Below are positions 2,924 through 31,921 of a stretch of DNA of 64,000 nucleotides, piece by piece. Source of the DNA: Flavobacteriales bacterium (GTDB taxonomy: Bacteria; Bacteroidota; Bacteroidia; Flavobacteriales_F; PHOS-HE28); contig JBDTNF010000250.1 of assembly GCA_039933875.1 (NCBI GenBank), forward strand, positions 1,359 through 65,358, in the 5' to 3' direction. The notes beneath the pieces were generated by a model. It ran no database searches, was not told where the DNA came from, and saw only the letters and a list, made by a program, of their open reading frames with translations. Made by a program: the position numbers and the translations under genes. Numbering within the stretch: position 1 is the stretch's first letter; each line of letters opens with the position of its first letter.

Positions 2924-3037
2924 TTGGCTCAAGGGGCCGTTGGCAGGAGGAGAAAGTCGGCAGTTTGCAGTAGGCAGTAGGCAAGTCGTATTGCGCCTGC
3001 TCCTGCCCCTGCGCCTTGAGCTCTGTACTTTTGGTCC

Positions 3038-3499: not shown

Positions 3500-3594
3500 C
3501 CGTTGATCGTGGTCGCTGTCGGGCATTGCCGAGCTGAACTTCCCGAACCAGCATCGATCAACGAAGTCCGACTTCCCTCACCATCTTAGCGGCC

Positions 3595-4899: not shown

Positions 4900-4967
4900 C
4901 CGTTCCCCGGTCCACGCTTCGACCGATCACTGGCGCACGTAGTTTTAGTGGACTGAACCCGAAAGCG

Positions 4968-9966: not shown

Positions 9967-10094
9967 GGTCCCAAGGTAACGCGATGAACAGCCGTTGGTT
10001 CGATGCGACGGAAGGTATTCGGCGCACGCGGTCCGGCGCGTTTTCACAACTTCACGCTCGCGGCCGCCGATGGTCGCTCGCCGCACTGCCGATC

Positions 10095-10772
10095 ATGCTG
10101 AAGCTCAAATTCACCGGCCCGGAGGAGAAGATCCGCGTGGGCAGTGGCCGTCTCGAGACCCTGGGCGACGGGGTGTTCGCCATCGTCATGACGCTCCTGG
10201 TGCTCGAGCTCAGGATCCCGGAATGGGAAGGCGAGGTGACCAACGCGCAAGTCTGGGACTACATGAAGCACCTGGCACCGAGCTTCTTCTCGTTCGGGTT
10301 GAGTTTCGCGATCCTCGGCATCATGTGGTTCGCGCACCGCATGGAGCACATCTTCATCGGCGCGGTGAACCGCAAGTTGATCTGGTTGAACATGCTCTTC
10401 TACGGCTTCATCTGCCTGGTGCCCTTCAGCGCGGCGATGTTGGGTCGTTACCCCAACGTGCAACTGGTGATCCTGCTCTACGGTGCCAACCTGATCTTCG
10501 CCATCGCCTTCCTCTACTGGATCTGGAGCTATGGCACCAGCCTCCCCGACTTGCGCGAGCGCGAGGTGCCCGCCGAGTTGCGCCGGGTGATCAACGTGCT
10601 CTTCGCCCTGGCGCCCACACTCTACATCGTCGCCATCCTGCTCAGCTTCATCGAGCCGGTATGGGGATTCTACTGCTACCTGCTTACGCCCCTTCTTTAC
10701 TTCGTCCCAACGCCCATCGACAAGTACCTGCCCGCGAAGAGCAATGGCACAGGAAGCGTGACGAACCGTTGA
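10095..10772 (+). CDS. TMEM175/DUF1211 family potassium channel-like protein
   Basis: Signature RLETLGDGVFAIVMTLLVLEL followed by about 6 TM segments. Confidence 0.8.
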   Translation: MLKLKFTGPEEKIRVGSGRLETLGDGVFAIVMTLLVLELRIPEWEGEVTNAQVWDYMKHLAPSFFSFGLSFAILGIMWFAHRMEHIFIGAVNRKLIWLNMLFYGFICLVPFSAAMLGRYPNVQLVILLYGANLIFAIAFLYWIWSYGTSLPDLREREVPAELRRVINVLFALAPTLYIVAILLSFIEPVWGFYCYLLTPLLYFVPTPIDKYLPAKSNGTGSVTNR

Positions 10773-10852
10773 CCTTGCCGCTGGCCCGGACCTTGAGCGG
10801 GTGGCACCTTGGCTATCTTGGCCGACCCTTGTTGCTAACCCCTCTCTACCCG

Positions 10853-13087
10853 ATGCGTACTTCCCTGCTGGCCACCGGTGTGGCCCTTGTGCTTAGCCTT
10901 GGTTCGAGCGCCCAGAAACAGCTCACCAACCGCGAGATCTGGTACACTCCCACCTTCAGCGCCGAAAGCGTGGGTGGACTGGCCAGCATGAAGGACGGCC
11001 TGCATTACACCACATTGGAAGCCGAGGCGGATGAGGCGGTGATCAACCAGTACGCGTACCGGACCGGGGAGAAAGTGGCCACGCTCGTGCGCGGCGGTGC
11101 GCTGGTGGCACCCGGCAGCAAGACCCCGTTGGAAATGGACGGGTACAGCTTCAGCGGTGATGAGAAGAAGATGATGATCGAGACCGGCAGCGACCCGATC
11201 TACCGCTACAGCTATTTCGCCTACAACTATGTGTTCGACCGTGCCAGCAAGAAACTCGCCCCGCTCAGCGATGTGACCAAGCCGAAGCAGCGCCTGGCCA
11301 CCTTCAGTCCCGACGGCAGCCGCGCGGCCTTCGTGCGCGACAACAACCTCTACGTGGTGGACCTGGCCACCATGGCCGAGACGCAGGTGACCACGGATGG
11401 CCTGTGGAACAAGGTGCTCAACGGTGCGACCGATTGGGTGTATGAAGAGGAATTCGCCCTGGTGCAGGGCTACCAGTGGAGCCCGAACGGGACCAAGTTG
11501 TTGTACCTCCGCAGTGACGAGAGCGACGTGCGCGAATTCGATGTGATCAAGTACGAGGAGAACCTCTACCCCAGCGAATACCGCTTCAAATACCCCAAGG
11601 CTGGCGAAGCGAACAGCACGGTCTCGCTGCACGTATACACCATCGCGACGAAGACGACCACCGCAGTGCCACTGGGTACGGACGGTGAAGTATACCTGCC
11701 CCGCTTCGGCTGGACCGCCAACGACAACGTGCTCTGGTTCATGCGCATGAACCGCCTGCAGAACGAGAAGGTGATCGCGACCGTGCAATTACCTCCTGAT
11801 GGGGCCATGGCGAAGCTCACCGCCACGGAGATCTACCGCGAAACGAGCAAGACGTATGTGGAGGTGACGGATGACCTGTTCTTCCAGGCGGACGGGAGCG
11901 GCTTTGTCCTTACCAGCGAGCGCGACGGATGGAACCACATCTACTGGTGCCCGATCCCCCCATGGACGGAATCCGCAAAAACGATGGGCACGGTGCGCGC
12001 GCTCACCAGTGGTACCTGGGATGTGGTCGCGGTGAAGGGCATCGACGAGAAGGGCAAGCGCGTGATCTTCAGCGCGTCGAAGGTCGCACCGGAAAGCCAG
12101 GAGATCTGGGCCGTGGGATTGAACGGCAAGGGGATGATCCAGCTCTCCCCCGTCGGTGGATACAGCGATGCGGAGTTCAGCACGGGCTTCCGCTACTTCA
12201 TCAATACGCGCAGCACGCAGAACACCCCGCCGGTGGTGACGCTGCACGATGGCAACGGGAAGTTGGTGAAGGAGTTGAAGAACAACGACCGCCTGAAGCG
12301 CGCCGCGGCGGACTATGGCATCGTTCCGAAGGAGTTCTTCACGTTCAAGACCGAGGGCGGGGTTGAACTGCATGGCTGGATGATGAAGCCGCCCGGCTTC
12401 CAAAGCCGCCAGCAGTACCCCGTGTTCATGACGCAGTATAGCGGCCCCAACAGCAACGAAGTGCTGGACCGGTGGGACGGACGCGACCACATGTGGCACA
12501 GCTTGCTGGCGCAGAAAGGCTACGTCGTTGTGTGCGTCGATCCGCGCGGCACCGGCCACCGTGGACGCGACTTCCGGCACATCACCTATGGCCAGTTGGG
12601 CAAGTACGAGACCGAGGACCAGATCTCCGCAGCGAAGTGGCTCGCGAAGCAGCCCTATGTGGATGGCACACGCATCGGCATCCAGGGCTGGAGCTATGGC
12701 GCGTACATGAGCAGCCTCTGCATCACCAAGGGCGCCGACGTGTTCAAGGCCGCCATCGCCGTGGCACCCGTGACCAACTGGCGCTACTACGATACCATCT
12801 ACACCGAGCGCTACATGGGCCTTCCCAAGGACAACGGCAGCGGCTACGACGACAACAGCCCCGTGAGCCACGTGGCCGAACTCAAGGGCAAGTACCTCTT
12901 GATCCATGGCCTGGCCGACGATAATGTGCACTTCCAGAACAGCGCCGAAATGGTGCTGGCCCTGGTGAAAGCGAACAAGCCCTTCGAACAGTTCACCTAT
13001 CCGGACAAGAACCACGGGATCTACGGCGGCACCACGCGCATGCACCTGTTCGAGATGATGACCAACTGGCTGGTGGAGAATCTCTGA
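10853..13087 (+). CDS. Dipeptidyl-peptidase IV (S9B family serine peptidase)
   Basis: Signal peptide, beta-propeller half with DWVYEEEF, and a catalytic domain with GWSYGAY (GxSxG), DDNVH and NHGI. It is embedded in the 1030-aa ORF 9995-13087. Confidence 0.9.
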   Translation: MRTSLLATGVALVLSLGSSAQKQLTNREIWYTPTFSAESVGGLASMKDGLHYTTLEAEADEAVINQYAYRTGEKVATLVRGGALVAPGSKTPLEMDGYSFSGDEKKMMIETGSDPIYRYSYFAYNYVFDRASKKLAPLSDVTKPKQRLATFSPDGSRAAFVRDNNLYVVDLATMAETQVTTDGLWNKVLNGATDWVYEEEFALVQGYQWSPNGTKLLYLRSDESDVREFDVIKYEENLYPSEYRFKYPKAGEANSTVSLHVYTIATKTTTAVPLGTDGEVYLPRFGWTANDNVLWFMRMNRLQNEKVIATVQLPPDGAMAKLTATEIYRETSKTYVEVTDDLFFQADGSGFVLTSERDGWNHIYWCPIPPWTESAKTMGTVRALTSGTWDVVAVKGIDEKGKRVIFSASKVAPESQEIWAVGLNGKGMIQLSPVGGYSDAEFSTGFRYFINTRSTQNTPPVVTLHDGNGKLVKELKNNDRLKRAAADYGIVPKEFFTFKTEGGVELHGWMMKPPGFQSRQQYPVFMTQYSGPNSNEVLDRWDGRDHMWHSLLAQKGYVVVCVDPRGTGHRGRDFRHITYGQLGKYETEDQISAAKWLAKQPYVDGTRIGIQGWSYGAYMSSLCITKGADVFKAAIAVAPVTNWRYYDTIYTERYMGLPKDNGSGYDDNSPVSHVAELKGKYLLIHGLADDNVHFQNSAEMVLALVKANKPFEQFTYPDKNHGIYGGTTRMHLFEMMTNWLVENL

Positions 13088-13245
13088 GACTATCAAATGG
13101 AGAATGATGAATGACCAAGTGGGTAGGGTCCCCAACCCCTCACTTCATCATTCTTCATTGAGTGTTGGCTATTGTTCATTCCGCTAGGCCACTTTTCTAT
13201 CTTGGCGCGCCTCCGTCGTCCAACCCCTTACCGAAAACCCTTGCG

Positions 13246-15093
13246 ATGAGCTCCACCGCGACCGCACCTGCGAACACGAAGCATCCCAGAGGCCTCTACC
13301 TGCTCTTCTTCACCGAGATGTGGGAACGCTTCGGCTTCTACTTGATGCTGGGCATCCTTTACCTGTACATGACCGACGGTCTGAAGGGTGGCCTGGGCTT
13401 CGGTGATGGACAGGCGAACGACATCTACGGGACGTACATCGCGCTGGTCTATCTCACCCCGTTCATCGGCGGGTTGCTGGCCGATCGCATCTTTGGGTAC
13501 CGCAAGACCATCATCGCCGGTGGGCTGCTCATGGCCTCGGGCTATCTCACCCTGGCGATGCCCGGTCCTACGGCTTTCGCCATCGCCCTGTTCCTGATCA
13601 TCATTGGGAACGGCCTCTTCAAGCCGAACATCAGTACCCTTCTCGGCAACCTCTACAACAAGCCGGAGTACGCCCGCCTGAAGGACAAGGGCTACAACAT
13701 CTTCTACATGGGCATCAACATCGGTGCCTTCGTCTGCAACTTCGTTGCTGCGTGGTTGCGCAATGAATACGGTTGGGGCTATGCCTTCGCTGCGGCGGGT
13801 GTCGGCATGCTCCTCGGGGTCGGCATTTTCATCAGCGGTAGCAAGGGCCTGGCCGAAGCGGACCAGATGAAGGCCGCGCAGAAGGAGGACATGCCGATGA
13901 GCCGCATCGTAGGGACCATCTTCATACCCGCCATCGCCTTCGCGATCCTGGGCTTCTTCGCCGGCCGTATCCTCGGTATGGAGAACATCTTCGGCAGCAC
14001 GAGCAACGATACCTTCCTGTTCGCCTGCATACCGGTCCTCTGGTTCTACCTGAGCACTTACCTGAAGAGCAGCAACGAGGACAAGAAACCATTGGGCTCG
14101 CTGCTTTACATCTATGTCGTTGTGATCGTGTTCTGGGCCATCTTCCACCAGAACGGCAATGTGCTCACCAACTGGGCCGAGCGCAATACGTGGCGCCCGA
14201 TCCCCGAGAACGCCGTGGGCTTCGCCCGGGCCACGGGCATGTTGCAGGAGGTGGATGACATCCCGGCCGAAGTAGCCACCAAGGCGACAAAGGATGGCGA
14301 CACCTACAGTGTACGTTTCGAAGGCCTCCACCGCGCGAAAGCCGATTCGATCGCTGCTGTGCTCGGTCAGGCCTCGGTGATGAAGACCGACTCCCTCGCG
14401 GCGGACACCGGTGCCGTGTTCGCAGCAACGATGCCTATCGCCACACGGGCCGAGGGCAAGATGCTGGCGGAACAGGTGCAGGCGCAGGGCCTGGTGAAGA
14501 AGTTGACCTACAACAAATACCTGGAGACCTTGCCGCGCGAGAAGTGGCCGACGGAAAAGGAGCCCGCCAAATTGATCAGCACCGAGTTGTTCCAATCGTT
14601 GAACCCGTTCTTCGTTGTGCTGCTCACGCCGCTGGTCATCGGCATCTTCTCGTTCCTCGGAAGCCGCGGCAAGGAGCCCAGCACTCCCGCCAAGATCGCC
14701 TTTGGCCTCCTCATCACCGGGCTCAGCACCTTGGTGATGATCGCCGCGGTGAGCGCCAGCGGCAACGCCGAACACAAGGTGAGCGCCATGTGGCTGGTCG
14801 GCACCTATGCCGTGATCACCTTCGGCGAACTCTGCCTGAGCCCGATGGGCCTCTCGCTGGTGAGCAAGTTGAGCCCTGCACGCCTCACCGCAGTGATGAT
14901 GGGCGGCTGGTTCCTCAGCACATCGATCGGGAACAAACTCGCCGGTGTTCTCGGCCATATGGGCAGTGACAGCGCCAACAAGAGCCTGGTGTTCTACATC
15001 AACTGCACCGGGGCCATGATCTGCGCGTTCCTGCTCTTCATCGCGGTGAAGCGTATCGCCGCTGTGCTGAAGGAGAAGACCGGGCACTATTGA
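13246..15093 (+). CDS. POT/PTR2 family peptide:proton symporter with a large inserted hydrophilic domain
   Basis: ExxERFxYY-type motif FTEMWERFGFYLM and FKPNISTLLG. A hydrophilic insert of about 150 aa lies between late TM segments. Confidence 0.9.
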   Translation: MSSTATAPANTKHPRGLYLLFFTEMWERFGFYLMLGILYLYMTDGLKGGLGFGDGQANDIYGTYIALVYLTPFIGGLLADRIFGYRKTIIAGGLLMASGYLTLAMPGPTAFAIALFLIIIGNGLFKPNISTLLGNLYNKPEYARLKDKGYNIFYMGINIGAFVCNFVAAWLRNEYGWGYAFAAAGVGMLLGVGIFISGSKGLAEADQMKAAQKEDMPMSRIVGTIFIPAIAFAILGFFAGRILGMENIFGSTSNDTFLFACIPVLWFYLSTYLKSSNEDKKPLGSLLYIYVVVIVFWAIFHQNGNVLTNWAERNTWRPIPENAVGFARATGMLQEVDDIPAEVATKATKDGDTYSVRFEGLHRAKADSIAAVLGQASVMKTDSLAADTGAVFAATMPIATRAEGKMLAEQVQAQGLVKKLTYNKYLETLPREKWPTEKEPAKLISTELFQSLNPFFVVLLTPLVIGIFSFLGSRGKEPSTPAKIAFGLLITGLSTLVMIAAVSASGNAEHKVSAMWLVGTYAVITFGELCLSPMGLSLVSKLSPARLTAVMMGGWFLSTSIGNKLAGVLGHMGSDSANKSLVFYINCTGAMICAFLLFIAVKRIAAVLKEKTGHY

Positions 15094-18992: not shown

Positions 18993-19808
18993 ATGGCCCA
19001 CGTCCTGCTTCCCACCGACTTCAGCGATAACGCGCTGAACGCATCCCTTTTCGCGCTTCGCCTCTTCGGTGACAAAGGCAACACCTTCACCGCGGTGCAC
19101 AGCTACGCGCCTGCCCTGAACGTGGAGGCCGAGGCATTCCTCGTGGAGACGGCCGCTTCCGTTGCCATGGAACAGACCGGGGCCTTCACTGAGCGGATCA
19201 AGACCGCTCTGCCCGGGCGGAAACCTGTGCTGGAGAGCGCCTGCGGGCCGGGCTCGCTTTCAGCAGTGATCCGCGACGCGCGAACCGGTGAGCCCGACCT
19301 CGTGGTGATGGGAACACAGGGCTCCAGTGGGCTGAAAGCGACCCTGATGGGCAACCATACGGTGGAGGTGATCCGCCATACGGACCTGGCGGTGCTGGCC
19401 GTGCCGGAACAGGCGCGCTACCGCATCCCGAAACGCATTGTGCTCGCCGATGATGGAGGACCGGTGGACAAAGCCATGCTCAAAGTGCTGCTGGACATCG
19501 CCCGCTGGTCGCGCTCCGAGGTGATGATCGTGGGGACGACCGATGAGGAGACCAACAGCGAACACGGGTCCACCGCCACGGCCTATGACCTGCTGCTGGG
19601 CGGCATTCCGCATACGCACCAGTACTTGAGCGGGGAGAACGTGCATGACGCGCTGAACGATCTGGCGGATCAAAGCGACGCCGACCTGGTGGCCCTTCCG
19701 CACCGCCCGCGCGGATCGTTCCAGCACTTGTTCCAGAACAGCCCTGCCACGAAGCTGGTGATGCACACCCACGTCCCCATGTTGGTGCTCCGTCCCCCGA
19801 ACGGGTGA
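18993..19808 (+). CDS. Universal stress protein (tandem UspA domains)
   Basis: Two Usp-like halves, each ending in a G-x2-G-x9-G(S/T)-type block (VMGTQGSSGLKATLMGNHT). Confidence 0.8.
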   Translation: MAHVLLPTDFSDNALNASLFALRLFGDKGNTFTAVHSYAPALNVEAEAFLVETAASVAMEQTGAFTERIKTALPGRKPVLESACGPGSLSAVIRDARTGEPDLVVMGTQGSSGLKATLMGNHTVEVIRHTDLAVLAVPEQARYRIPKRIVLADDGGPVDKAMLKVLLDIARWSRSEVMIVGTTDEETNSEHGSTATAYDLLLGGIPHTHQYLSGENVHDALNDLADQSDADLVALPHRPRGSFQHLFQNSPATKLVMHTHVPMLVLRPPNG

Positions 19809-19814
19809 ACGTGA

Positions 19815-20762
19815 TCAGATCTGCTTGGGCTTCTTCGGGGTGTGCAGCGTGAACACCCTTGAGATGTTGAACCCGTAGTGGATCTGCCCCTCCGACCAAC
19901 TGTTGGTGGTCTCGGTGATGAAGGCACGTTCGAACATACCCGTGCTATTGGTGAAGTGCAGCTGGAAAACGTGCCCGCCGGTCTCGATATCGAAACCGAT
20001 GGAGAGCGAATTCTTGAACCCGGCGTTCGGGTCGGCCGCTAATTCCGCCGCCGTTGGCTCGAGCAACTGGCCGGGAAGGACGTAGAAGTACTCGGCGTTC
20101 AAGGACACGCGCTTGCTCAATTTGATGCGGCCCGAGAGCCCCACATTGTACACATCGTTCTTCTCATCGACGGTCGTCACCAGGTTCCGGTGTACCAGGC
20201 CGGGGGTGAGTTGCAGGGTGAGGCTCTCCGTGAATTTCCGCCCCACCACCAACTGGAAGGAATAGCTCATCCGGTTGCTGAAGTAATAGGTCTTCGACTC
20301 GTCGGGCCAGTAATCCGACTGCTGGGTGGTGTTCACCGCTGACGATGCGACGAACGCTGCGGTGACCGGCATGCCGCAGCCCTCCTGGCACTGGCGCAGG
20401 AACTTGTACTTCACGAAACCATCCACGGTCTTCTGGTAACTGCTCCGCCCGATGCCGATCATCACCCGGTCGGTCAAGCCGTAGTCGAGACCGAGCCGGA
20501 TGGTCGCCTGGTCCAGGCCGAAAAAATTGCTCACCCCCTCCTCCAACGTGCCGAACCGGTGGCCGATCTTGAAGTCGAGCACGCCGTGCGCAGTGTTCTC
20601 CACGCTGTGCCCATTGATGACACGGGTGGTCTTGAAGCTCGCCGTGGTGTATACCGGGACCGTGTCCTCCCCGCCCAACAGTTTCAACAGGTCCTCATCC
20701 TGCGCGAACGCGGACACCGAAAGCAACGGGACGGATAGTACCAGGAGGGTCGTTCGCAGCAT
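19815..20762 (-). CDS. DUF5777-like outer-membrane beta-barrel protein
   Basis: Signal peptide, alternating beta-strand pattern and a C-terminal aromatic-rich strand. The N-terminal DEDLLKLLGGED...TTRVINGHSVE is typical of this family. Confidence 0.65.
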   Translation of the reverse strand: MLRTTLLVLSVPLLSVSAFAQDEDLLKLLGGEDTVPVYTTASFKTTRVINGHSVENTAHGVLDFKIGHRFGTLEEGVSNFFGLDQATIRLGLDYGLTDRVMIGIGRSSYQKTVDGFVKYKFLRQCQEGCGMPVTAAFVASSAVNTTQQSDYWPDESKTYYFSNRMSYSFQLVVGRKFTESLTLQLTPGLVHRNLVTTVDEKNDVYNVGLSGRIKLSKRVSLNAEYFYVLPGQLLEPTAAELAADPNAGFKNSLSIGFDIETGGHVFQLHFTNSTGMFERAFITETTNSWSEGQIHYGFNISRVFTLHTPKKPKQI

Positions 20763-20774
20763 ACGGTCGGGTTC

Positions 20775-21329
20775 TTACATCTTGGTGTAATCCAAGCGCA
20801 CCTTCACCTGGACCTCTTCGGCGATACTCTTGCGCACCACACTCGGGATCGTGATGCCATGGTCCTCGGGCTTCACAGTGAAGTCACTGCTCGCCTTGAT
20901 GCCACCCGCCGCGTCCACGACCAGAGTGCCCTTGGCCTTCACCGGCTTCATAACTCCGTGGATCGTGAGTTCGCCTTCCACCAGCACCTCATAGGTACCG
21001 GCCGTCTTCAACTGCTCGGCCGTCACTCCGGTCATCTTCCCCTTGAAGGAGGCCTTGGGAAAGGTGTTGCTCTCCATGTAGTTCTCGTTGAAGTGCTCCT
21101 GCAACAGCGCCTTCTCGAACTCAAAGGCCTTGATGAGGACATCGAACTGGATGGCCCCACTGGTGGCGTCGAACACACTGGTCACCTTGTTGTTTTCACC
21201 TACGATGAGTTCCACCGGGGTTTCCGAGGTGAAGGTGATGTGGCCGGTGCGCGTGGCATAGCGGTCCTGGGCGATGGTGGCGAGCGGCAGCAAGGCTGCG
21301 ACGGCGATGATCGTTCTCACGGTGTTCAT
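20775..21329 (-). CDS. YceI family periplasmic protein
   Basis: Signal peptide. Contains HITFTSETPVE...FDVLIKAFEF...GELTIHGVMKPV, characteristic of YceI lipid/isoprenoid-binding barrels. Confidence 0.85.
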   Translation of the reverse strand: MNTVRTIIAVAALLPLATIAQDRYATRTGHITFTSETPVELIVGENNKVTSVFDATSGAIQFDVLIKAFEFEKALLQEHFNENYMESNTFPKASFKGKMTGVTAEQLKTAGTYEVLVEGELTIHGVMKPVKAKGTLVVDAAGGIKASSDFTVKPEDHGITIPSVVRKSIAEEVQVKVRLDYTKM

Positions 21330-21364
21330 GTCGGTTGTTTTTCTTCTGTCGGTATAGGCAAGGA

Positions 21365-21790
21365 TCATTCCACAGCGGCACAACGCTGCAACAGCACATC
21401 CATGAGCAGGCCTGTGCAGATGCCCTTGATGCTTACGGTGTCCCCCGCTTTCCAATCCCCGGGCACATCCTCCGAAGCGAATTCGCACACGACCCCGGCC
21501 AACGCATCGCCGGTCTCAAGCACCACGTTCACCTTGCCCTTGTCGCCCTGGTCGATGGCGCGGATCGTTCCGTTCACCTGGATGGCCTGCTCCGTGGCCC
21601 CAACGAACCGGACGGTGGCGGCGCCCTCGTTCTCCTGGAACGCTTTCAGCAGATCGACGGCCTCGATCGTCTCCTTGGCGGCTAACGCTTCGGCGCCTTG
21701 CACCGGCCTGTTGTATTCCGTCCAGCCATAGAGCCCGCCACCAATGACGGCAACGAGAACGACGATGGCGATGATGGTCCTTGTTCGCAT
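21365..21790 (-). CDS. Membrane-anchored OB-fold protein (tRNA_anti-like family)
   Basis: N-terminal TM, then YNRP...AVDLLKAFQENEGAATVRFVG...VVCEF...SIKGICTG...DVLLQRCA, matching the tRNA_anti-like pattern. Confidence 0.75.
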   Translation of the reverse strand: MRTRTIIAIVVLVAVIGGGLYGWTEYNRPVQGAEALAAKETIEAVDLLKAFQENEGAATVRFVGATEQAIQVNGTIRAIDQGDKGKVNVVLETGDALAGVVCEFASEDVPGDWKAGDTVSIKGICTGLLMDVLLQRCAAVE

Positions 21791-21795
21791 GGTGT

Positions 21796-22164
21796 TCAAT
21801 TCTCCGGGTAACCAGCAGCGACCCACAACTCCAGTTGCTGCAACTCACAGGATGGCAACGGTCCGCTCGTGGGCATGCCGATCGCTCCCGGGCTGTACCG
21901 TACCGAGGGAAGGAAGGGGCCATCGTTCACGATCTTCGCCACAATACCGCTGTACGTCGTGAAGTCACCCGCCCCGTCGCCGCCCGGCACGTGGCAGCCC
22001 GGTGTCGCGCATTTCGCTTGGACGATGGGTAAAATGGTGCCGGAGTAGGTGATGTTCGTGGTATCGCAGAACGAGTTCGGGTAGAGTTCTTCCTCGTTAT
22101 CGTAGTAGCAGCCGTTCGAGAACAGCAGTGTGCCGAGCATCAAGACCAGGAGGATGGAACGCAT
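21796..22164 (-). CDS. Lipoprotein with one PSCyt1-like (Planctomycete cytochrome c-like) domain, CX4CH variant
   Basis: Lipobox LLFSNGC, then ILPIVQAKCATPGCH...IGMPTSGPLPSCELQQLELWVAAGYPEN. Only the last 122 codons of ORF 21796-22743 look coding. Confidence 0.7.
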   Translation of the reverse strand: MRSILLVLMLGTLLFSNGCYYDNEEELYPNSFCDTTNITYSGTILPIVQAKCATPGCHVPGGDGAGDFTTYSGIVAKIVNDGPFLPSVRYSPGAIGMPTSGPLPSCELQQLELWVAAGYPEN

Positions 22165-22169
22165 CGGCT

Positions 22170-22928
22170 TCAATTGTTCGGTGCGCTGGCCTCGATCCAG
22201 ATGAGGAATTGCTGGATCCGGCAATCCGGCAGCATCGAGCCGCTCGGCGGCATCGCGATCCCACTGGGGTCGTGCTGTATCGAGAGCGCAAGGCGTCCGT
22301 CCATGGCCACACTGTTGAGTACCGCCCACGAAGTGAGGTCGAGCCCACCCTGGGGTGTGGCCCCGCTGTGGCAACCCTGACAGCGCTGTTGGATGAGCGG
22401 GACGATGGTACCGGAGTAAGTAACGTTGGACGTGTCGCACACCGACCCCACACAACTGTTGTTCTGCGCACCCTGTTGGATCCAAAGGCCGATCAGGTCG
22501 ATCTGGTCGTCGGTGAGGGGTGGCTGGGGCGGCTGCGGCATGATATCGTCCGGGTCGGTCTCGTTTATGGCCTCCCAAAGATCGCCGTCCTGAACGATGC
22601 CGCTGTTCATCAGGCTGGAATAATCGGTGATCTGGATCTCGTCGTTGTCGTCCGTGGCGGTGTTGTGGCAGCCGGGCACCGCGCAGTTGCTGATCAACAG
22701 CGGCAGGATCTCCTGCTCGAAGAAGACGATGTTCGTGTCGCACACCACCTCCTCCTCCCCGCCACCACCGGTACCCGGATCGAACGGCGGATCGATCGGG
22801 GCGATCGGGGGTTCGTGCTTGCAGCTGGAAAGACCCAGCACCAGCGCCAGGGCCGCCAACAGGGCCACCAGGCTGGGGACCAGCACATCACCTGCGCCCT
22901 CCTTCATCAACTTGTGCTTGGTCCCCAT
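22170..22928 (-). CDS. Lipoprotein with two PSCyt1-like domains (CX4CH and CXXCH)
   Basis: Lipobox VLGLSSC. Domain 1 is ILPLLISNCAVPGCH...IMPQPPQPPLTDDQIDLIGLWIQQGAQNN. Domain 2 is IVPLIQQRCQGCHSGATPQGGLDL...IAMPPSGSMLPDCRIQQFLIWIEASAPNN. Confidence 0.75.
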   Translation of the reverse strand: MGTKHKLMKEGAGDVLVPSLVALLAALALVLGLSSCKHEPPIAPIDPPFDPGTGGGGEEEVVCDTNIVFFEQEILPLLISNCAVPGCHNTATDDNDEIQITDYSSLMNSGIVQDGDLWEAINETDPDDIMPQPPQPPLTDDQIDLIGLWIQQGAQNNSCVGSVCDTSNVTYSGTIVPLIQQRCQGCHSGATPQGGLDLTSWAVLNSVAMDGRLALSIQHDPSGIAMPPSGSMLPDCRIQQFLIWIEASAPNN

Positions 22929-23064
22929 CTGTCGTGTTCCATTCCCATCGCTCGGGTTCTGAGCCGATCGGCGGGTACAAACCAAATTCCGCAGGAGGGC
23001 GTTCGCACGGTCCATCCCGACGAACCGGGATGATCCGGGGATGGAGCGGGAAGGACCCACGAGC

Positions 23065-23265
23065 CTAGCGCGTTTTGACATCGCGTGCATGTCCCATGCT
23101 CGTCCTCCGCAGTTCCACCAAACCGCTCAGCAGCACAATGGCATTGAGGCTGTTGTGGTAGCGTGGCGCATGGTTCAGTTCCATGATCCGCCCGAGGAGG
23201 CGTTCGGGCTCCGTGTCGAGCAACAACTCAAGGTCCTGTGGGTCGAGGGTGAGCAACTGGTCCAT
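23065..23265 (-). CDS. Hypothetical small protein (66 aa)
   Basis: ATG-initiated, GC3-rich ORF on the same strand between the LytTR regulator and the cytochrome-like genes. I recognise no family. Confidence 0.35.
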   Translation of the reverse strand: MDQLLTLDPQDLELLLDTEPERLLGRIMELNHAPRYHNSLNAIVLLSGLVELRRTSMGHARDVKTR

Positions 23266-23373
23266 TTCGTCGGGGTTCTAGGATGTCACACCCCGAAGCT
23301 GGCGCGCGCCCACCCGTGCGCATAACGCACGGTGATGGAACAGGAAACGGGTTGGATGGAGCGGTATCCGCGG

Positions 23374-24129
23374 CTACCGGCCCGCGAGCCAGCGCTTGAA
23401 CTCAGCTGAACGCTCGCTGCTTACGATCGCATCATCGCCGTATGGTGGATCAAGCACCACCTTCACCCGGCTCTTGCTGTAGGCGAGCAGTTCCTTGATG
23501 CTGTCCAGTTGCACGATCAACTGGCGGTTGAGCCGGATGAACTTCTCTGGATCCAGCTGTAGTTCGAGCTTGTCCAGGCTTTCCTCCAGCGGCAGGTCAC
23601 GGCCTTCGCGTGTGCGCAGGAAGGTGTTCTTCATCAACGAATGGATGTACGCTATGCCGTCCGGTTCGACCACGCGGAAGTGATCGCCGTAGCGGATCAG
23701 GAAGCGCTTGATCGGTGCGGAAGGTCGCGCGGGTTGCGCGTTGGCTGCCGGGAGGTGCGCATGATCACGCACCACGCCACCCTTCTTCGCGCGCTCGATC
23801 GCCTGGGCCAGGTCCTCCTTCTTTATCGGCTTCAGCAGGTAGTCCAATGCGTTCACCCGGAAAGCCTGTAGCGCATGCTCGTCGTATGCCGTGGTGAACA
23901 CCACCGGGCAGCCCACCTCCACCTGCTTGAACACTTCGAAACTGTCGCCATCCGCCAGGCGCACATCGAACAATGCAAGGTCCGGAACGGGGTTGGCGCG
24001 GAACCACTCGACCGCCCCGGAGACCGTCGGGATGTCAGCCACCACCTGGATGTCCGGATCGATGCCGACCAGCATCTTACGCAACCGCGAAACCGCGGCC
24101 GGTTCATCCTCGATGATCAGTACATTCAT
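23374..24129 (-). CDS. LytR/AlgR family response regulator (REC + LytTR DNA-binding domain)
   Basis: REC domain with MNVLIIEDE and phospho-acceptor LALFDVRLADGDS. The C-terminal LytTR pattern is FLIRYGDHFRVV...IAYI... Confidence 0.9.
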   Translation of the reverse strand: MNVLIIEDEPAAVSRLRKMLVGIDPDIQVVADIPTVSGAVEWFRANPVPDLALFDVRLADGDSFEVFKQVEVGCPVVFTTAYDEHALQAFRVNALDYLLKPIKKEDLAQAIERAKKGGVVRDHAHLPAANAQPARPSAPIKRFLIRYGDHFRVVEPDGIAYIHSLMKNTFLRTREGRDLPLEESLDKLELQLDPEKFIRLNRQLIVQLDSIKELLAYSKSRVKVVLDPPYGDDAIVSSERSAEFKRWLAGR

Positions 24130-24132
24130 GGT

Positions 24133-26928
24133 CTAGGGATCGATCAAAGGTATCCGGACGCTGAAGGTGTCACTGGTCTTTTCCACCAGGATGGGACGTG
24201 TGGTGAGCGCCTTGTAGCGTTTCACGATACTCTCCAGACCGAATCCCGTGGAACGCGGCGGTGAAAGTCGCGGACGCAGCGGGTTCTGGACGATCACGGT
24301 ATCATGCCCGGCGGTGATCGAGATCAAGAACGGCTGGCCCTTCCCGATCACGTTGTGCTTCATCGCGTTCTCCACGAGCAGTTGCAGCGTAAGGGGCATG
24401 ATACCGCGCGATCGTTCCTTTCCGCCCACGTGGACCTCGATGGTGATCGCCTCACCGAAGCGACGCTGTTCCAAGGCGAAGTAGTTCGCCACCAGGTCCA
24501 GTTCCTCCTCCAGGGTGATACGCTCCTTATCGCGTACAAGCAGGATGTTGCGGAAGAAGACGCTCAATTGCTCCACATGCTCCACGGCTTTGGCCGGTTC
24601 GGATTCGATCAGCTCCACCAAGGCGTTGAAGCTGTTGAACAGGAAATGGGGATCGACCTGGCTGCGCAGGACCTCCAGTTGGAACCGGACCTGTTCCTGT
24701 TCCATCCGCTCGCGGTAACGCAGACGGCGGTCGTGGCCGCGCAGGAGCCAGAAGACGGTGACGAAGACCAGCACCGCGCCGAGGGCAACTACCCAGGGCC
24801 AGCGCCACCATGGCGCATCCACGGTGATATCCAGCGCGGCCCAATCATCGGAAACGGGTGCTTCACCGGTGAACGCACGGATCTCGAAGCGGTAGTCGCC
24901 CGGAGGCAGCGCCGAAAAACTCACTTCCCGGTCACGCGTCCGGATCACACGGTCATCGAGCCCGCGCAAACGGTACTCGAAACGCACCGCTCCCGGATCG
25001 GCATAGTGCAACCCGGTGAACTGTATGGTGATGTCGTTCCGGTCGTGCGATGTGCGCAGCGCCTGATCCACCCGATAGGACGCGTTGTCCACCAATGCAC
25101 CGATGATCACGGCCGGGATCCGCGGGTCGAAGTGGGCGGCCGTGGGCTGCATGCGTACAAGCCCCTTGTTGCAGGCGAGCCAGAGCGCACCGCCCCGATC
25201 GTTGCACAGCGCGTTCAACTGCGCCTTCATCCCCTCGAGCCCGAAGCGGGCGGTCAGGTCGGTCCACATACCGCTGGTCGGGTCAACGGATGAAACACCC
25301 GTACTGCCGAACGCGAGCAGATGACCGTTGCTGTTCCCCAGCGAGAAAAGTTCACCGTCGAACGGTGGAAGTCCCACAGCCAAGCACCGGGCGGAGTCTT
25401 CCTCAAAGCGACAGAAACCGGTCCCCGGACCAGCGGCCCAGGCCTTGCCGTTGGCATCGTGCACGAGCGAATAGAAGGTGCCCTTGCCTTTCGCACCGCC
25501 TCCCGCGCCCCCCCAGCGCATCACGCCATGGCCATCGGTCGCGATCAATACCCCGTTCTCATGCGGTAGCACATCGATGACAAAGCCGGACTCCCTGGAT
25601 AGCGCGGTGAAGATCCCATCCCGGTAGCGCGTGATGCCTTCGAGCGTGGCGAACCAGACCGCATCACCACGAGCACGAACGGAGAGTACGTTGTTGTTCC
25701 CAAGACCATCGGCGGTGGTGTAGTGGGCCACCTTGCCGTTGGCGAACAAGGCATACACCCCTGAACCGAAGGTGGCGGCCCAAACGGTGCCATCGTCCGC
25801 AGCCGCCAACGACACGATCTTCGTGGTCGGATCGACCTCCAGGGAGGAACGTGTGACCTTGAGTTCCTCGGCGAAGGCGGCGACGTGATTGAAGAGGCCC
25901 TTTGGTGTGGCGAACCAGATGCGATCGTGTGCGTCGCTGCACAGCGCGGTGATCACGCGCAGATCCAATCCCTCGTGCTCGGGAACAAAGAGGATGGCAG
26001 GATCGGCGCGGTGCAAGAGTTCGGTCCCATCGCACCACCAAACGGCGCCTTCGTGATCGAGCAACAGATCGTCGATGGCGCTCGGGCGTCCCTCAACCGG
26101 ACGTTGTGAGGCATAGCTGCCGCGGGAGGGTCCACGATCAACCATGATTACGCCGTGATCCTGCGTCCCCAACCACACCAGGTCCCCCACCACCTGAATG
26201 CTCCGTATGGGGCCACTCGCCCATTTCGGGTCAAGTATCTCCAGGCTCTCCCTGCCCTTACCCGGCTTCCAACGAAATGCGCCGCTGCGATCGGTACCTG
26301 CCCAAACACTTCCGTCGGGTGTGGCAGTGATCGCGAGCACCAGGTTGTCCGGTGCACCCTGCGTCTCACCGAAAACCTCCAACACACCACTGGTCGAACA
26401 GAAGGCCAGGCCCTGATCGGTGGCCACCGCAACATGGCCATCCGCGGTCACGCAAAGATCATTGACATGCGCATCGGGAAGGTCACTGATCGCCGTGGAG
26501 CGTCCGTTCTCCAACACCAGCACACCCTTGCCATACGTCCCGATCCAGATCCGCCCTGCGTTGTCCTCCACCAGGGCGCGCACCGGGTCCGTGCGCAGCA
26601 GCGTGTCCTTCCACAGTGTATCGCAGCCCAATGCATCGCAACGGACGAGCACTCCCGTCGTCAATGCTGCGATGACACCGCGTCCGGAAGCGCACATCGC
26701 TTGAACGCCGCTGTTCTCCGTTCGCAGCATGACATCCACGTGCTCCCCGTCGGTCCGAAGCAGGCCCAGGTCGCTTCCCACCCAGATCAGCCCGAACGAA
26801 TCCTGAACGAGTTGGCCGATGGCGGGACGCTGCTGCCCAGGTCGCACTTCGAGAACCCGGGTGTAAGGGAATTGTGCCAGCGCCAGTTGAGCGAGGACGA
26901 TGCTGAGCGTGAGCAACAGTGCCCTCAT
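24133..26928 (-). CDS. Sensor histidine kinase: periplasmic beta-propeller (Reg_prop/Y_Y_Y-like) + TM + LytS-type His_kinase/HATPase
   Basis: Signal peptide, about 640 aa of repeated WxGT/WFAT propeller-like blocks, a Y_Y_Y-like segment (RFEYRLRGLDD...GDYRFEIRA), the TM WPWVVALGAVLVFVTVFWLL, then QVDPHFLFNSFNAL and an ATPase domain. Confidence 0.85.
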   Translation of the reverse strand: MRALLLTLSIVLAQLALAQFPYTRVLEVRPGQQRPAIGQLVQDSFGLIWVGSDLGLLRTDGEHVDVMLRTENSGVQAMCASGRGVIAALTTGVLVRCDALGCDTLWKDTLLRTDPVRALVEDNAGRIWIGTYGKGVLVLENGRSTAISDLPDAHVNDLCVTADGHVAVATDQGLAFCSTSGVLEVFGETQGAPDNLVLAITATPDGSVWAGTDRSGAFRWKPGKGRESLEILDPKWASGPIRSIQVVGDLVWLGTQDHGVIMVDRGPSRGSYASQRPVEGRPSAIDDLLLDHEGAVWWCDGTELLHRADPAILFVPEHEGLDLRVITALCSDAHDRIWFATPKGLFNHVAAFAEELKVTRSSLEVDPTTKIVSLAAADDGTVWAATFGSGVYALFANGKVAHYTTADGLGNNNVLSVRARGDAVWFATLEGITRYRDGIFTALSRESGFVIDVLPHENGVLIATDGHGVMRWGGAGGGAKGKGTFYSLVHDANGKAWAAGPGTGFCRFEEDSARCLAVGLPPFDGELFSLGNSNGHLLAFGSTGVSSVDPTSGMWTDLTARFGLEGMKAQLNALCNDRGGALWLACNKGLVRMQPTAAHFDPRIPAVIIGALVDNASYRVDQALRTSHDRNDITIQFTGLHYADPGAVRFEYRLRGLDDRVIRTRDREVSFSALPPGDYRFEIRAFTGEAPVSDDWAALDITVDAPWWRWPWVVALGAVLVFVTVFWLLRGHDRRLRYRERMEQEQVRFQLEVLRSQVDPHFLFNSFNALVELIESEPAKAVEHVEQLSVFFRNILLVRDKERITLEEELDLVANYFALEQRRFGEAITIEVHVGGKERSRGIMPLTLQLLVENAMKHNVIGKGQPFLISITAGHDTVIVQNPLRPRLSPPRSTGFGLESIVKRYKALTTRPILVEKTSDTFSVRIPLIDP

Positions 26929-26930
26929 GC

Positions 26931-27488
26931 TCAGTTCGATGGTGCCGGTTTGAAAAGCAGATCGACCTTCACCTGCACCACTGCGGCGATCTTCTGTTGC
27001 ACGATGCCCGGGATATGGATACCGTGCTCGTCAAGCACGACGTCGAAGGCCGATGTCACACGGATACCCTCGGCCGTGACGATCACATCGCACGGTATGA
27101 TCCGCTCACGCGGTTGTCCCTTCACGGTGAGCGTTCCTTTGGCGCGCACCTTATAGGTGCCGGGTACCGCGAGATCCACCGCCTCGATGATCCGCCCTTG
27201 GAAGACCGTGTTGGGCCATGTGTTCGAGTCCAGATAGGTCTCGTTGAAGTGCTCCATCTGCAGCGGACCATTGAAGCCAATGAAGGCCGCCGTGGGGACC
27301 CGGATCGCGAAACCGCGTGCGTTCCGATCGAGCACACCAGCTGTCGCCTCGTTCTGCGCCTTGATCACTTCCATCGGGGCATCGCTGATGAACGAGACCA
27401 CGGATCGCTGCACGCGGAAGAGCACGCGCTCCTGCGCCGCACCCGCTAATGTTGATACGACCAGGATAATGGAATAAAGGATGCGCAT
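26931..27488 (-). CDS. YceI-like periplasmic protein (first gene of the TCS operon)
   Basis: Signal peptide MRILYSIILVVSTLAGAAQ. YceI-like blocks are VSFISDAPMEVI...FNETYLDSNTWPN..F.G...GTLTVKGQPRE. Its stop lies 2 nt before the kinase start. Confidence 0.75.
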   Translation of the reverse strand: MRILYSIILVVSTLAGAAQERVLFRVQRSVVSFISDAPMEVIKAQNEATAGVLDRNARGFAIRVPTAAFIGFNGPLQMEHFNETYLDSNTWPNTVFQGRIIEAVDLAVPGTYKVRAKGTLTVKGQPRERIIPCDVIVTAEGIRVTSAFDVVLDEHGIHIPGIVQQKIAAVVQVKVDLLFKPAPSN

Positions 27489-27532
27489 GATCGGGCCATG
27501 AACGAAGCCCGTGCCGAAGTTAGCGGCTCGCG

Positions 27533-28675
27533 CTAGTGCACCACCACGAATGGCCGCACACTCGGTGCACCATTGACCACGAGTACCAAATGGTACACAC
27601 CCGATGGCAACCCGCTTACCTCGACGGTCGACCCAGCGCTCACCAGGGGCGGCAACAGCACGACGCGACCTGTCACATCGCAGACCCGCGCCAAAGCCCG
27701 GCCCGGAACATCCGACAGAACGATCCGGTCGTTGGCGATCGTCGGGGACAGGGACCATTCCAGCGCGCTTCGTTCAGCGATGGACGTCGAAAGGCAACTG
27801 TATTCCGTCTGCACCCGCGTGCTGCTCCCCAAACTGTCCAATACGGCCACTATGGCTTGCGGATCACCCTTCAGGTAATGGTCCAGCCAGAGGCCCGCGA
27901 AGTCGTTCATCACATTGTGTTGTTCTTCGCGTGAAATGGTCAGGTCCGGTCCGCAGGTCAATTCGCCGAACGAGCAATTGAAGTTGCTTTCGGCGAAGTA
28001 GCAATGGCCGCCGCCGAGGATGTTCACGAAGGCCCGGCAGGGTACCGTCAGTGCATCATAGATCGGCCCTTGGTGGTCAGCGATCGGCGCCACACAGTCC
28101 TCGCTCGCTGCGAACACCATCGTGGGCACAAGCACATTGGCCGCAGCCGCGATGGCGCTGGGATCGGTCTCCGCCGGGGCGAAACTGACCACCGCCTGGA
28201 TGCTCGCATTACCCGCTGCACCAAGGACACTGGCACCACCGCCCATGCTGTGCCCCATGAGGGCACTTGCCGCTGCGACATGACCGAAGAAGGGCGATGC
28301 GCCATCAACGTTCGCCGCCTGAAGGGCTTGGGCCACATAGGCCAGATCGGCGCCGAAGGCCGCGTGGTCCGGGGCGAAGCCACCTTCCGTCGTCGGCAGG
28401 GCGACGATATAGCCTTTCGGCACGAAGTAGTTCCAGAAGTTGGCATACGAACCAACGCCCATCACGAACCCATGGCCGACCACCAGCACCGGGAACTCCC
28501 CAGTGGCGACGGCCACATCGCCACCTGCTGCGACACCGGGATAGTAGAGGTCGGTGGTGATCGTACGGTTCCGCGTCGCGTCGAAGAAGTCGATGGTGCG
28601 ATCGCCGATCACGTAGGGCTGCGCCTGTGAAGCGATGGCCAGGACCAGGGAGGGGAATAGGAAGAGTTGTCGCAT
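27533..28675 (-). CDS. Cutinase/polyesterase-lipase-like alpha/beta hydrolase with T9SS C-terminal domain
   Basis: Signal peptide; nucleophile elbow MGHSMGGGAS; Asp in FAASEDCVAP; His in LGGGHCYF. The layout matches actinobacterial cutinases. The C-terminal ~80 aa (LSPTIANDRIVL...VSGLPSGVYHLVLVVNG...) is a T9SS CTD. Confidence 0.8.
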   Translation of the reverse strand: MRQLFLFPSLVLAIASQAQPYVIGDRTIDFFDATRNRTITTDLYYPGVAAGGDVAVATGEFPVLVVGHGFVMGVGSYANFWNYFVPKGYIVALPTTEGGFAPDHAAFGADLAYVAQALQAANVDGASPFFGHVAAASALMGHSMGGGASVLGAAGNASIQAVVSFAPAETDPSAIAAAANVLVPTMVFAASEDCVAPIADHQGPIYDALTVPCRAFVNILGGGHCYFAESNFNCSFGELTCGPDLTISREEQHNVMNDFAGLWLDHYLKGDPQAIVAVLDSLGSSTRVQTEYSCLSTSIAERSALEWSLSPTIANDRIVLSDVPGRALARVCDVTGRVVLLPPLVSAGSTVEVSGLPSGVYHLVLVVNGAPSVRPFVVVH

Positions 28676-28813
28676 AGGGCGATGGTTGAGTTGTTGGAAC
28701 AACAACCGGGGACCGTTTCAGTTCGACCCCAAATTAGTCCGCGCCCCACAGGCGCGCTTTCACCGGTCGGCACGAAGCCACGTCGAGCACTCGGCTATAT
28801 TTGCCGCCCGTTC

Positions 28814-28903
28814 GGAGAGGTGCCAGAGTGGTCGAATGGGTCTGTCTCGAAAACAGAAGTACTCGCAAGGGTACCGGGGGTTCGAATCCCTCCCTCTCCG
28901 CCA
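28814..28903 (+). tRNA. tRNA-Ser (anticodon CGA), CCA encoded
   Basis: Acceptor GGAGAGG/CCTCTCC; anticodon arm TCTGT-CTCGAAA-ACAGA; long variable arm GTACTCGCAAGGGTAC; T-loop GGGGGTTCGAATCCCTC; then G-CCA. Confidence 0.9.
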
Positions 28904-31842: not shown

Positions 31843-31846
31843 CTCG

Positions 31847-31921
31847 GGTGGAAGACCGGGCTTGAACCGGCGACCTTCGGAATCACAATCCGACGCTCTA
31901 ACCAACTGAGCTACATCCACC
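31847..31921 (-). tRNA. tRNA-His (anticodon GUG) with genome-encoded G-1; CCA not encoded
   Basis: The reverse complement is G-GTGGATG-TA-GCTCAGTTGGTTAGAGC-G-TCGGA-TTGTGAT-TCCGA-AGGTC-GCCGG-TTCAAGC-CCGGT-CTTCCAC-C. G-1 pairs with C73, and there is one U:U at 6:67. Confidence 0.85.

Follow-up and report, generated by a model that had tools for sequence, protein, structure and literature searches.

What does a YceI protein, ranking with the most widespread bacterial proteins whose function is uncertain, do when its gene is packed together with those of two cytochrome-c-like lipoproteins, a membrane-anchored OB-fold protein and an outer-membrane beta-barrel of the DUF5777 family? This question is raised by a locus of a Flavobacteriales bacterium (contig JBDTNF010000250.1), where five such genes, here called g1 to g5, occupy positions 19815–22928 of the 64,000-nucleotide stretch of DNA that was analysed (hereafter the window). 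As judged from gene order in other genomes, the five genes are a real operon that is widely conserved in Bacteroidota, and we consider it highly probable that, with a triad of regulatory genes lying directly upstream, they constitute a co-regulated redox module of the cell envelope.

According to the listing of open reading frames (ORFs) and the reading of the sequence, the five genes are consecutive on the minus strand, in the order g1 (22170..22928), predicted to encode a di-haem c-type cytochrome lipoprotein of 252 amino acids (aa) with two PSCyt1-type domains; g2 (21796..22164), a predicted mono-haem cytochrome c lipoprotein of 122 aa with the motif CATPGCH; g3 (21365..21790), an OB-fold protein of 141 aa with a single N-terminal membrane anchor and the conserved cysteines C102 and C125; g4 (20775..21329), a YceI-family periplasmic lipocalin of 184 aa; and g5 (19815..20762), a DUF5777 outer-membrane beta-barrel of 315 aa with 12 predicted strands. 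From g1 to g5, the intergenic gaps are 5, 5, 35 and 12 nucleotides (nt). These coordinates and gaps are exactly those given in an earlier note on this DNA, whose description of the five products also proves correct in the light of the Pfam matches and of the comparison of g1 with g2. Its statement that every product has an export signal holds as well, the export signals having been read by eye from the sequence and not by a predictor: the lipoboxes are LGLSSC in g1 and LFSNGC in g2, g3 has its anchor, and g4 and g5 carry cleavable signal peptides ending in AQ/D and FAQ/D, respectively. A terminator scan found no terminator-like site on the minus strand inside the g1–g5 cluster. Only one coordinate is soft, namely the start of g1, for which a public gene call (P0121, 281 aa) takes an ATG located 29 codons upstream; position 22928 is favoured because the conserved repeats and the promoter-like box described below sit between that upstream ATG and 22928. 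The operon is well delimited at its lower end. A tandem universal-stress-protein (Usp) gene (18993–19808, plus strand) converges on g5, and the two stop codons are only 6 nt apart, which leaves no space for separate terminators.

A scan with one genome per species provided 588 stretches encoding DUF5777 relatives, the best 80 of which were fetched as loci and compared, by tblastn and phmmer, with the five window proteins; 70 of the 80 held enough upstream DNA to be informative. The exact order g1-g2-g3-g4-g5 was found in 37 of these 70 loci, the remainder being mostly permutations or sets with one gene missing, while at least one cytochrome gene lies beside the barrel in 66 and YceI adjoins it in 57. 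Gene-order conservation across Bacteroidota, put forward in the earlier note as a check, is thus clearly positive. The loci span five orders (Flavobacteriales, Saprospiraceae/Lewinellaceae, Chitinophagaceae, Cyclobacteriaceae with other Cytophagales, and Bacteroidales), and their hosts are mainly aerobic sludge and freshwater Bacteroidota. An unbiased clustering of the neighbouring ORFs recovered DUF5777 in 76 of the 80 loci, YceI in 68, a cytochrome in 66, the OB protein in 56, a LytTR regulator in 29, a propeller kinase in 25 and a Rieske protein in five, with no further recurrent gene family. Since the same genes stand side by side in most of these 80 loci from other genomes, the operon is not a chance grouping. 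As a whole, the g5 family is large, with more than 8000 matching proteins at 90% clustering and 1851 matching clusters at 50% identity (E ≤ 1e-3), and distant g5 relatives (39–45% identity) are still flanked directly by PSCyt1-type mono-haem lipoproteins.

Concerning the chemistry of the module, g1 and g2 are very probably genuine c-type cytochromes, to judge by their motifs and their relatives. In Pfam, g1 matches PSCyt1 ('Planctomycete cytochrome C', PF07635) with 31 bits for a cut-off of 22, and its haem motifs are CAVPGCH (CX4CH) in domain 1 and CQGCH (CXXCH) in domain 2. A Pfam scan of g2 gave no family match; because g2 is similar to both domain 2 (40% identity, E = 6e-22) and domain 1 (29% identity) of g1, the latter appears to be a tandem of the domain present once in g2. 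In an alignment of 185 domain copies that had been picked from the loci for having C-Xn-CH, a selection that fixes both Cys and the His, a Met-Pro pair was found about 40 residues downstream of the motif in 183 copies, together with a conserved C-terminal W-I-x-x-G-A helix and an additional Cys pair. Among the g1/g2-type ORFs of the loci, 128 of 133 have at least one CXXCH or CX4CH, and several of the five exceptions are truncated. A profile of 30 g1 homologues matched cytochrome c6 (3dr0, E = 5.5e-4), with CXXCH placed on the haem motif and 'aMP' aligned with the region of the axial Met, and weakly matched PccH, a Geobacter cytochrome c (4rlr, E = 0.007). This profile search was more informative than the fold comparison of the AlphaFold2 (AF2) model of g1, which is all-helical with a predicted local distance difference test (pLDDT) value of 76.

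In g1 domain 1 (~22665–22685), the ligands Cys, His and Met are constant, but the spacer between the two Cys varies at a single homologous site: among the homologues (P0121–P0240), CX4CH was found 86 times, CX5CH 17 times, CX8CH 12 times and CXXCH three times. Domain 2, for its part, is CXXCH in 116 of 118 homologues. The g2 orthologues alternate between CXXCH, mostly in Saprospiraceae, and CX4CH, mostly in Flavobacteriales. Because canonical and expanded motifs interchange at one site with every ligand kept, a functional haem site is indicated rather than decay, and haem would be attached to both proteins. Haem sites of the CX3CH and CX4CH types occur in cytochromes c3. The variable CXnCH site offers a natural experiment in how specific the attachment of haem is. 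With the PSCyt1 family, g1 shares, besides its above-threshold match, the consensus C-x-x-C-H ... M-P ... W-I-x-x-G-A. Elsewhere, however, PSCyt1 domains are found in giant planctomycete proteins fused to PSD1/DUF1549/DUF1553, none of them characterised, whereas here the domain forms small lipoproteins on its own and shows CX4-8CH variants and an additional, disulfide-like Cys pair.

The exceptions to the presence of cytochromes are informative in their turn. Four loci, from Dyadobacter, Xanthocytophaga and an uncultured member of the Cytophagales, are cytochrome-free. A Rieske gene lies directly upstream of DUF5777-YceI in Dyadobacter (L067 and L070), Flectobacillus (L077) and Xanthocytophaga (L059), and its product is a lipoprotein of 146–167 aa with a twin-arginine-type (Tat) signal and a Rieske 2Fe-2S domain. 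It replaces the cytochromes in L059, L067 and L070, i.e. in the three annotated loci of the four cytochrome-free ones, while Flectobacillus has the Rieske gene plus a g1-like di-haem gene after YceI. Another arrangement was found on two independent metagenome contigs (L081 959–2329 and L082 540–1910), where one protein, P0297, has a CXXCH motif and a Reeler domain fused to the N-terminus of DUF5777; its gene is preceded by two mono-haem cytochrome genes, and no YceI is present in the flanks of these short contigs. Eukaryotic Reeler domains accompany cytochrome b561 (FRRS1). The constant feature is a barrel with a small periplasmic electron-transfer protein, usually accompanied by YceI. Because a Rieske protein can stand in for the cytochromes beside the barrel, the function of the module would be a redox one, and we take this swap of redox partner as the strongest sequence-level argument for such chemistry. 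The earlier note had already named a redox function as plausible, and this gains support from the conserved haem ligands, the cytochrome c6 match and the Rieske swap; the choice among the roles that it offered is a matter of interpretation, to which we return below. One of the Dyadobacter loci (L067, D. psychrotolerans) also shows an unusual ORF of 1452 aa (10001–14359), in which an entire resistance-nodulation-division (RND) pump (ACR_tran, residues 5–1034) is joined to a C-terminal domain of the outer-membrane efflux protein (OEP) type; this ORF adjoins the Rieske-DUF5777-YceI set, downstream of an OmpR-type two-component system.

The unit described in the earlier note was too small at its upper boundary: the five-gene operon is real, but a YceI-kinase-LytTR triad and a repeat-bearing promoter belong to it too, and it extends upward to position 27482. 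Directly upstream of g1 and on the same strand, the order is YceI2 (26931..27482), a second YceI-family periplasmic protein of 183 aa (Pfam 25.2 bits, cut-off 23.7), a sensor histidine kinase (24133..26928) of 931 aa with a periplasmic beta-propeller (Reg_prop), Y_Y_Y, a transmembrane segment and His_kinase (PF06580), and a response regulator (23374..24129) of 251 aa with Pfam Response_reg and LytTR domains, the gaps being 2 and 3 nt. The pairing of a receiver-LytTR regulator with a PF06580 kinase is that of a LytTR two-component system. In the 25 kinase loci counted above, the kinase gene abuts that of the regulator, with spacings from an overlap to a few tens of nt, or about 300–400 nt in L071 and L076. 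Wherever the upstream flank of the kinase is available, the end of a YceI gene coincides with the kinase start or adjoins it. The triad is located upstream of g1 in Flavobacteriales, Saprospiraceae and Adhaeribacter, and downstream of g5 in Chitinophagaceae (L054, L066, L076 and L078). As the linkage survives this rearrangement, triad and module appear to be functionally tied. By analogy with kinases that rely on periplasmic binding proteins, we infer that YceI2 is a ligand-binding co-sensor of the kinase.

The means by which the regulator would reach the operon is suggested by three tandem 11-base-pair (bp) repeats, CCCGCTCCATC, CCCGGATCATC and CCCGGTTCGTC, at 23019..23050 on the minus strand, 91 nt upstream of the g1 start. 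Binding sites of LytTR regulators such as AgrA and ComE classically consist of direct repeats of about 9–11 bp set in a 21-bp register, and the repeats at 23019–23050 are a putative binding site of the LytTR regulator, which would thereby drive the five-gene operon. A pattern of two repeats in the 21-bp register occurs once in the window, for 0.02 occurrences expected. In its relaxed form (CCGNTTCR-N12-14-CCGNTTCR), the pair lies a short way ahead of the first module gene, on the coding strand, in 26 of the 80 loci, usually 90–110 nt before the ORF, with about 31 matches vs. about 2 expected from the background (an enrichment of about 15-fold); some repeat-bearing loci have no regulator within the fetched DNA. 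A generic repeat finder missed these short imperfect direct repeats. An inverted copy of the half-site is also present immediately downstream of the three repeats (23008–23019 vs. 23026–23048), which makes possible a 12-bp hairpin with a 6-nt loop, and the hairpin at 23008–23048 might also act as the terminator of the upstream operon.

About 50 nt upstream of the g1 ATG, a candidate Bacteroidota -7 box, aatTTGGTTTG (cf. TAnnTTTG), was tentatively read from the sequence (22978..22988, minus strand), and related loci have TAnnTTTG-like boxes at a similar distance, 35–50 nt downstream of the repeats. A sigma-70 promoter scan, which is unsuited to this phylum, gave no match, and no Rfam element was found in 19300–28000. 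A repeat upstream of YceI2 that would make the system autoregulatory is plausible in L024 and L028; in the window it was not found, and this candidate was set aside. Between the regulator gene and the operon promoter lies a small ORF of 66 aa (23065..23265, minus strand) with neither a signal peptide nor a Pfam family. Homologues of it occupy the same position in eight loci (tblastn, 38–52% identity, E down to 3e-14), all within the Flavobacteriales lineage, and it may be a ninth gene of the system.

As for the three other products of the operon, g5 is assigned to DUF5777 (PF19089) with 311.7 bits (E = 3.9e-93). Its AF2 model, built with 15 homologues, has 12 strands and is of moderate confidence (pLDDT 66, predicted template-modelling score 0.64). 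Foldseek brought it close to 12- to 14-stranded barrels (FapF, NanC, KdgM, OmpG and the COG4313 channel; E from 1e-7 to 1e-5, TM-score about 0.45), and no specific barrel family stands out among these small-porin matches. Across 75 sequences, in which conservation partly reflects the peptide patterns by which the loci were fetched, the invariant residues are for the most part the basic R47, R69, R89, R106, K111, K118, K176, R212, K214, R218 and R302, the histidines H68, H191 and H264, and the acidic E55, D84, D114, D258 and E260. A conserved segment that precedes the first strand, with F43, K44, R47 and E55, may act as a plug. A redox-active CX3C in a periplasmic turn of g5 was considered and rejected, as the QCxxGC cysteines are kept in close relatives only.

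The OB-fold protein g3 matches PF12869 (tRNA_anti-like) over residues 1–137 (57.8 bits, cut-off 23.5, E = 1.2e-15). Being an anchored OB protein, it was considered as a CcmE-like haem chaperone; CcmE binds haem through a His, and the candidate was rejected because g3 is devoid of histidine and only its cysteines are conserved. The match of g4 to YceI (PF04264) is clear (64.6 bits, 1.7e-17); other proteins of this family are known to bind a polyisoprenoid or quinone, in a barrel like that of lipocalins. Sequence searches of a library of solved structures with the g5 profile, g4 and g3 returned nothing usable, g4 being without a relative in the Protein Data Bank.

The closest parallel known to us is found in Proteobacteria. 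The YceI-family lipocalin BcnA of Burkholderia and the cytochrome b561 encoded next to it, LcoA, guard membrane lipids against peroxidation, and their genes are linked or fused across Proteobacteria (PMC9113575). The authors of that work proposed that peroxyl radicals are quenched by a quinone that the lipocalin binds and that the cytochrome reduces this quinone again; YceI-family proteins bind ubiquinone-8 (PMC9113575), and BcnA has a high affinity for both menaquinone and tocopherol (PMC5350466). The BcnA-LcoA(-PsrA) system (YceI-YceJ in E. coli) resembles the present one in that a secreted or periplasmic YceI lipocalin is genetically locked to a haem protein, and its stress-inducible expression can be likened to the regulation of the module. 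As a YceI-family protein with a signal peptide, g4 is of the BcnA type, a likeness drawn at the level of the family. The partners differ, an inner-membrane di-haem cytochrome b561 in one case and two c-type cytochrome lipoproteins or a Rieske protein in the other, and the module adds an outer-membrane barrel, an anchored OB protein and a YceI-kinase-LytTR sensor, in Bacteroidota and not in Proteobacteria.

A second relative is Cbp2D/Cbp2E of Cellvibrio japonicus (X158 YceI-like, X183/X132 cytochrome), which also combines YceI-like and small mono-haem c domains in exported proteins; in Cbp2D, the YceI-like domain binds ubiquinone-8 and is joined to c-type cytochrome domains (PMC8981238). Cbp2D, which carries a DUF1587 domain as well, is however a single secreted multidomain polypeptide that bears CBM2, a carbohydrate-binding module (CBM), and is tied to cellulose and chitin degradation, whereas the components of the present module are encoded by separate genes. 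The Pfam scans of g1–g5 revealed no CBM, and the search of solved structures with the g1 profile did not retrieve CjX183. The earlier note had held that no function was described for this combination, which stands for the exact gene set; the pairing of YceI with a haem protein, on the other hand, had been described (PMC9113575, PMC8981238).

The module thus belongs to no characterised system, and it plausibly works like BcnA-LcoA. We tentatively propose, at somewhat less than an even chance, a specific mechanism in which a quinone-like carrier held by YceI is redox-cycled by the cytochromes while the barrel provides access to the outer membrane. In this scheme, the kinase, helped by YceI2, would sense a lipophilic molecule or a damage signal in the periplasm, and the LytTR regulator would switch on g1–g5 through the direct repeats upstream of g1. 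Both cytochromes would exchange electrons with the respiratory cytochrome c pool, either drawing or returning them, and would reduce or oxidise the lipophilic carrier held in g4, in this phylum most likely menaquinone. The barrel g5 would give the carrier, or the target of the carrier, access to the outer membrane or the exterior, while g3, which alone is anchored by a transmembrane segment and not by a lipid, might attach the system to the inner membrane, the membrane that contains the quinones. The likeliest physiological role would be to quench oxidants of a lipophilic nature, or lipid radicals, within the envelope, in line with the proposal made for the proteobacterial BcnA-LcoA.

Several observations weigh against this interpretation. 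No cytochrome b561, the defining partner of BcnA-LcoA, is among the recurrent neighbours in the 80 loci, and g3 and g4 are each absent from some of them; moreover, these loci are the closest of the 588 relatives, so that the percentages describe the near family and are skewed to close kin. The variable Cys-Cys spacer of g1 domain 1 (n = 4, 5, 8 or 2) is, as a motif, unusual for haem c. The Foldseek search with the two-domain g1 model was non-significant (E 3–10, TM-score about 0.4 on the target), although many of these matches are cytochromes c6 and c551. The g5 model, of moderate confidence (pLDDT 66), resembles generic small porins only, and its numerous invariant Arg and Lys would be more in keeping with an anion channel than with a conduit for lipids. 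At the promoter, the repeat site of the window could be a hairpin instead of a binding site, an explanation that does not hold for the AT-rich loci. Finally, the literature searches found no experiment on any member of the module.

Among the other explanations, an outer-membrane electron conduit fares best, though we regard it as unlikely. Here, a surface-exposed g2 would be fed from periplasmic g1, via a quinone carried by YceI or via the barrel, to serve an extracellular acceptor, donor or enzyme, the models being extracellular electron transfer and Cbp2D, which is thought to feed lytic polysaccharide monooxygenases. The N-termini of the two lipoproteins bear on this point. In Bacteroidota, the lipoprotein export signal has, counted from the lipidated Cys, a K or polar (S) residue and then two acidic ones at +4/+5 (PMC5080379). 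The mature N-terminus of g2, C-Y-Y-D-N-E-E-E-L-Y-P, is kept in 62 orthologues and in distant variants and is acidic like this signal, whereas that of g1, C-K-H-E-P, has one acidic residue, which suggests a different location; in g2, however, acidic residues occupy +4 and +6 to +8 and not the exact signal positions, +4/+5 after K or S. A surface location of one cytochrome, as in the porin-cytochrome conduits (MtrCAB, PioAB, Geobacter Pcc), is possible for the module, which also shares with them a barrel encoded with periplasmic and lipoprotein cytochromes c. The joining of YceI-like and cytochrome c domains outside the cell in Cbp2D (PMC8981238) and the weak match of g1 to PccH point in the same direction. 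In the porin-cytochrome conduits, on the other hand, deca- or multi-haem cytochromes are held inside 20- to 26-stranded barrels, whereas the haem motifs of the module number one and two, its barrel, with 12 strands and 315 aa, would be too narrow to hold a cytochrome as MtrB does, and a lipocalin is an integral part, and an MtrCAB-type conduit was rejected on barrel size and haem number. For a conduit in general, the neighbour clustering linked no extracellular redox enzyme or CBM to the 80 loci, and the hosts are largely aerobic.

Somewhat less probable still is a role in the uptake or trafficking of a lipophilic nutrient or cofactor (quinone, isoprenoid or porphyrin), which the barrel would import and YceI would chaperone across the periplasm, the cytochromes altering its redox state for release or trapping. 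That YceI proteins carry hydrophobic molecules is in line with this explanation, as are the conserved core of barrel and small redox protein, usually with YceI, and the barrel's place in Foldseek among substrate-specific small channels (NanC, KdgM and COG4313); the tie of a YceI-type protein to the kinase, too, suggests a lipophilic small-molecule signal. Against it, no inner-membrane transporter, TonB-dependent receptor or ATP-binding cassette (ABC) system is conserved near the 80 loci, lipid uptake normally needs no redox proteins, and the conserved barrel residues are mostly charged.

A narrower version of the electron conduit, minimal, different in principle from MtrCAB and operating in aerobic Bacteroidota, is improbable as a joint claim. 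In it, a periplasmic di-haem g1 and a surface mono-haem g2 would be wired by a quinone that YceI shuttles through or alongside the DUF5777 barrel, with no haem wire in a large porin; the kinase, with YceI2 as its ligand receptor, would switch on the entire system, and the variable CXnCH motifs (n = 2, 4, 5 and 8) would be matured by system II.

Redox handling of metals, for example periplasmic Fe(III) reduction or Cu(I)/Cu(II) handling with the barrel as a metal channel, is very unlikely. It could explain the several invariant His, Asp and Glu of the barrel, and the barrel-YceI-Rieske set of Dyadobacter has an OmpR-type two-component system on one side and an RND efflux pump on the other; this context is nevertheless limited to two loci. 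The barrel Cys pair is kept in close relatives only, and no metal-binding family (CopC, P19, cupredoxin or FTR1) is linked to the module in the 80 loci. A YceI gene is also raised in iron-limited Riemerella (PMC5429918), although it was not shown to be a member of this module.

Weakest of all, and marginally less credible than a metal role, is the idea that the haem motifs are vestigial and that the lipoproteins are non-redox structural or binding components, with disulfides for Cys pairs, of a generic envelope-stress or outer-membrane maintenance set: the variable spacer of g1 domain 1, the failure of g2 with all Pfam cytochrome models and the non-significant fold search of g1 would fit it, but it runs against the near-universal retention of CXXCH or CX4CH and of the distal Met-Pro, the interchange of canonical and expanded motifs at the same orthologous site, the alignment of the ligands with cytochrome c6 and the substitution of the cytochromes by a Rieske protein.

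To our knowledge, there are no experimental data at all on DUF5777 or on the PSCyt1 domain. In the literature, we found no paper mentioning DUF5777 or this gene set, nothing functional on PSCyt1/PF07635 or tRNA_anti-like/PF12869 in this context, and no study linking YceI with cytochromes c in Bacteroidota. Zobellia YceI genes are induced on attachment to brown algae. By uniting YceI, DUF5777 and PSCyt1 in one regulated unit, the locus suggests that cytochromes may redox-cycle a lipocalin-bound quinone at the outer membrane. Were this envelope redox mechanism true, it would reveal the way in which Bacteroidota protect or wire an outer membrane that lacks its own respiratory chain, and the BcnA-LcoA concept would reach outside Proteobacteria, to redox partners of a wholly different kind. 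The large DUF5777 barrel family would thereby gain a first function, and the coupling of YceI to a kinase would represent a new type of co-sensor for lipophilic signals.

Some minor observations concern the surroundings of the module, in the window and elsewhere. In L084, a gene of the futalosine pathway of menaquinone biosynthesis (4200–5027; PF02621, VitK2_biosynth) is encoded on the opposite strand, some 1.6 kb upstream of a cluster of cytochrome, DUF5777, YceI and kinase genes; only one such case was seen, and coincidence may account for it. In L083, a YceI-DoxX-MarR cluster (2425–3577) is found on the opposite strand about 3.5 kb from a distant DUF5777-cytochrome locus, and its YceI-DoxX pair is another pairing of YceI with a membrane redox-associated protein family. 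In the window, the gene directly upstream of YceI2 (27533–28705, minus strand) encodes a secreted alpha/beta hydrolase of 390 aa, of the PETase/dienelactone-hydrolase type (PF12740, 2e-19), with a C-terminal extension that has no Pfam match; this gene is syntenic in five related loci. Finally, a tRNA-Ser (CGA) gene at 28814–28903 (plus strand) and a tRNA-His (GTG) gene at 31846–31920 (minus strand) are located a few kb upstream of the system.

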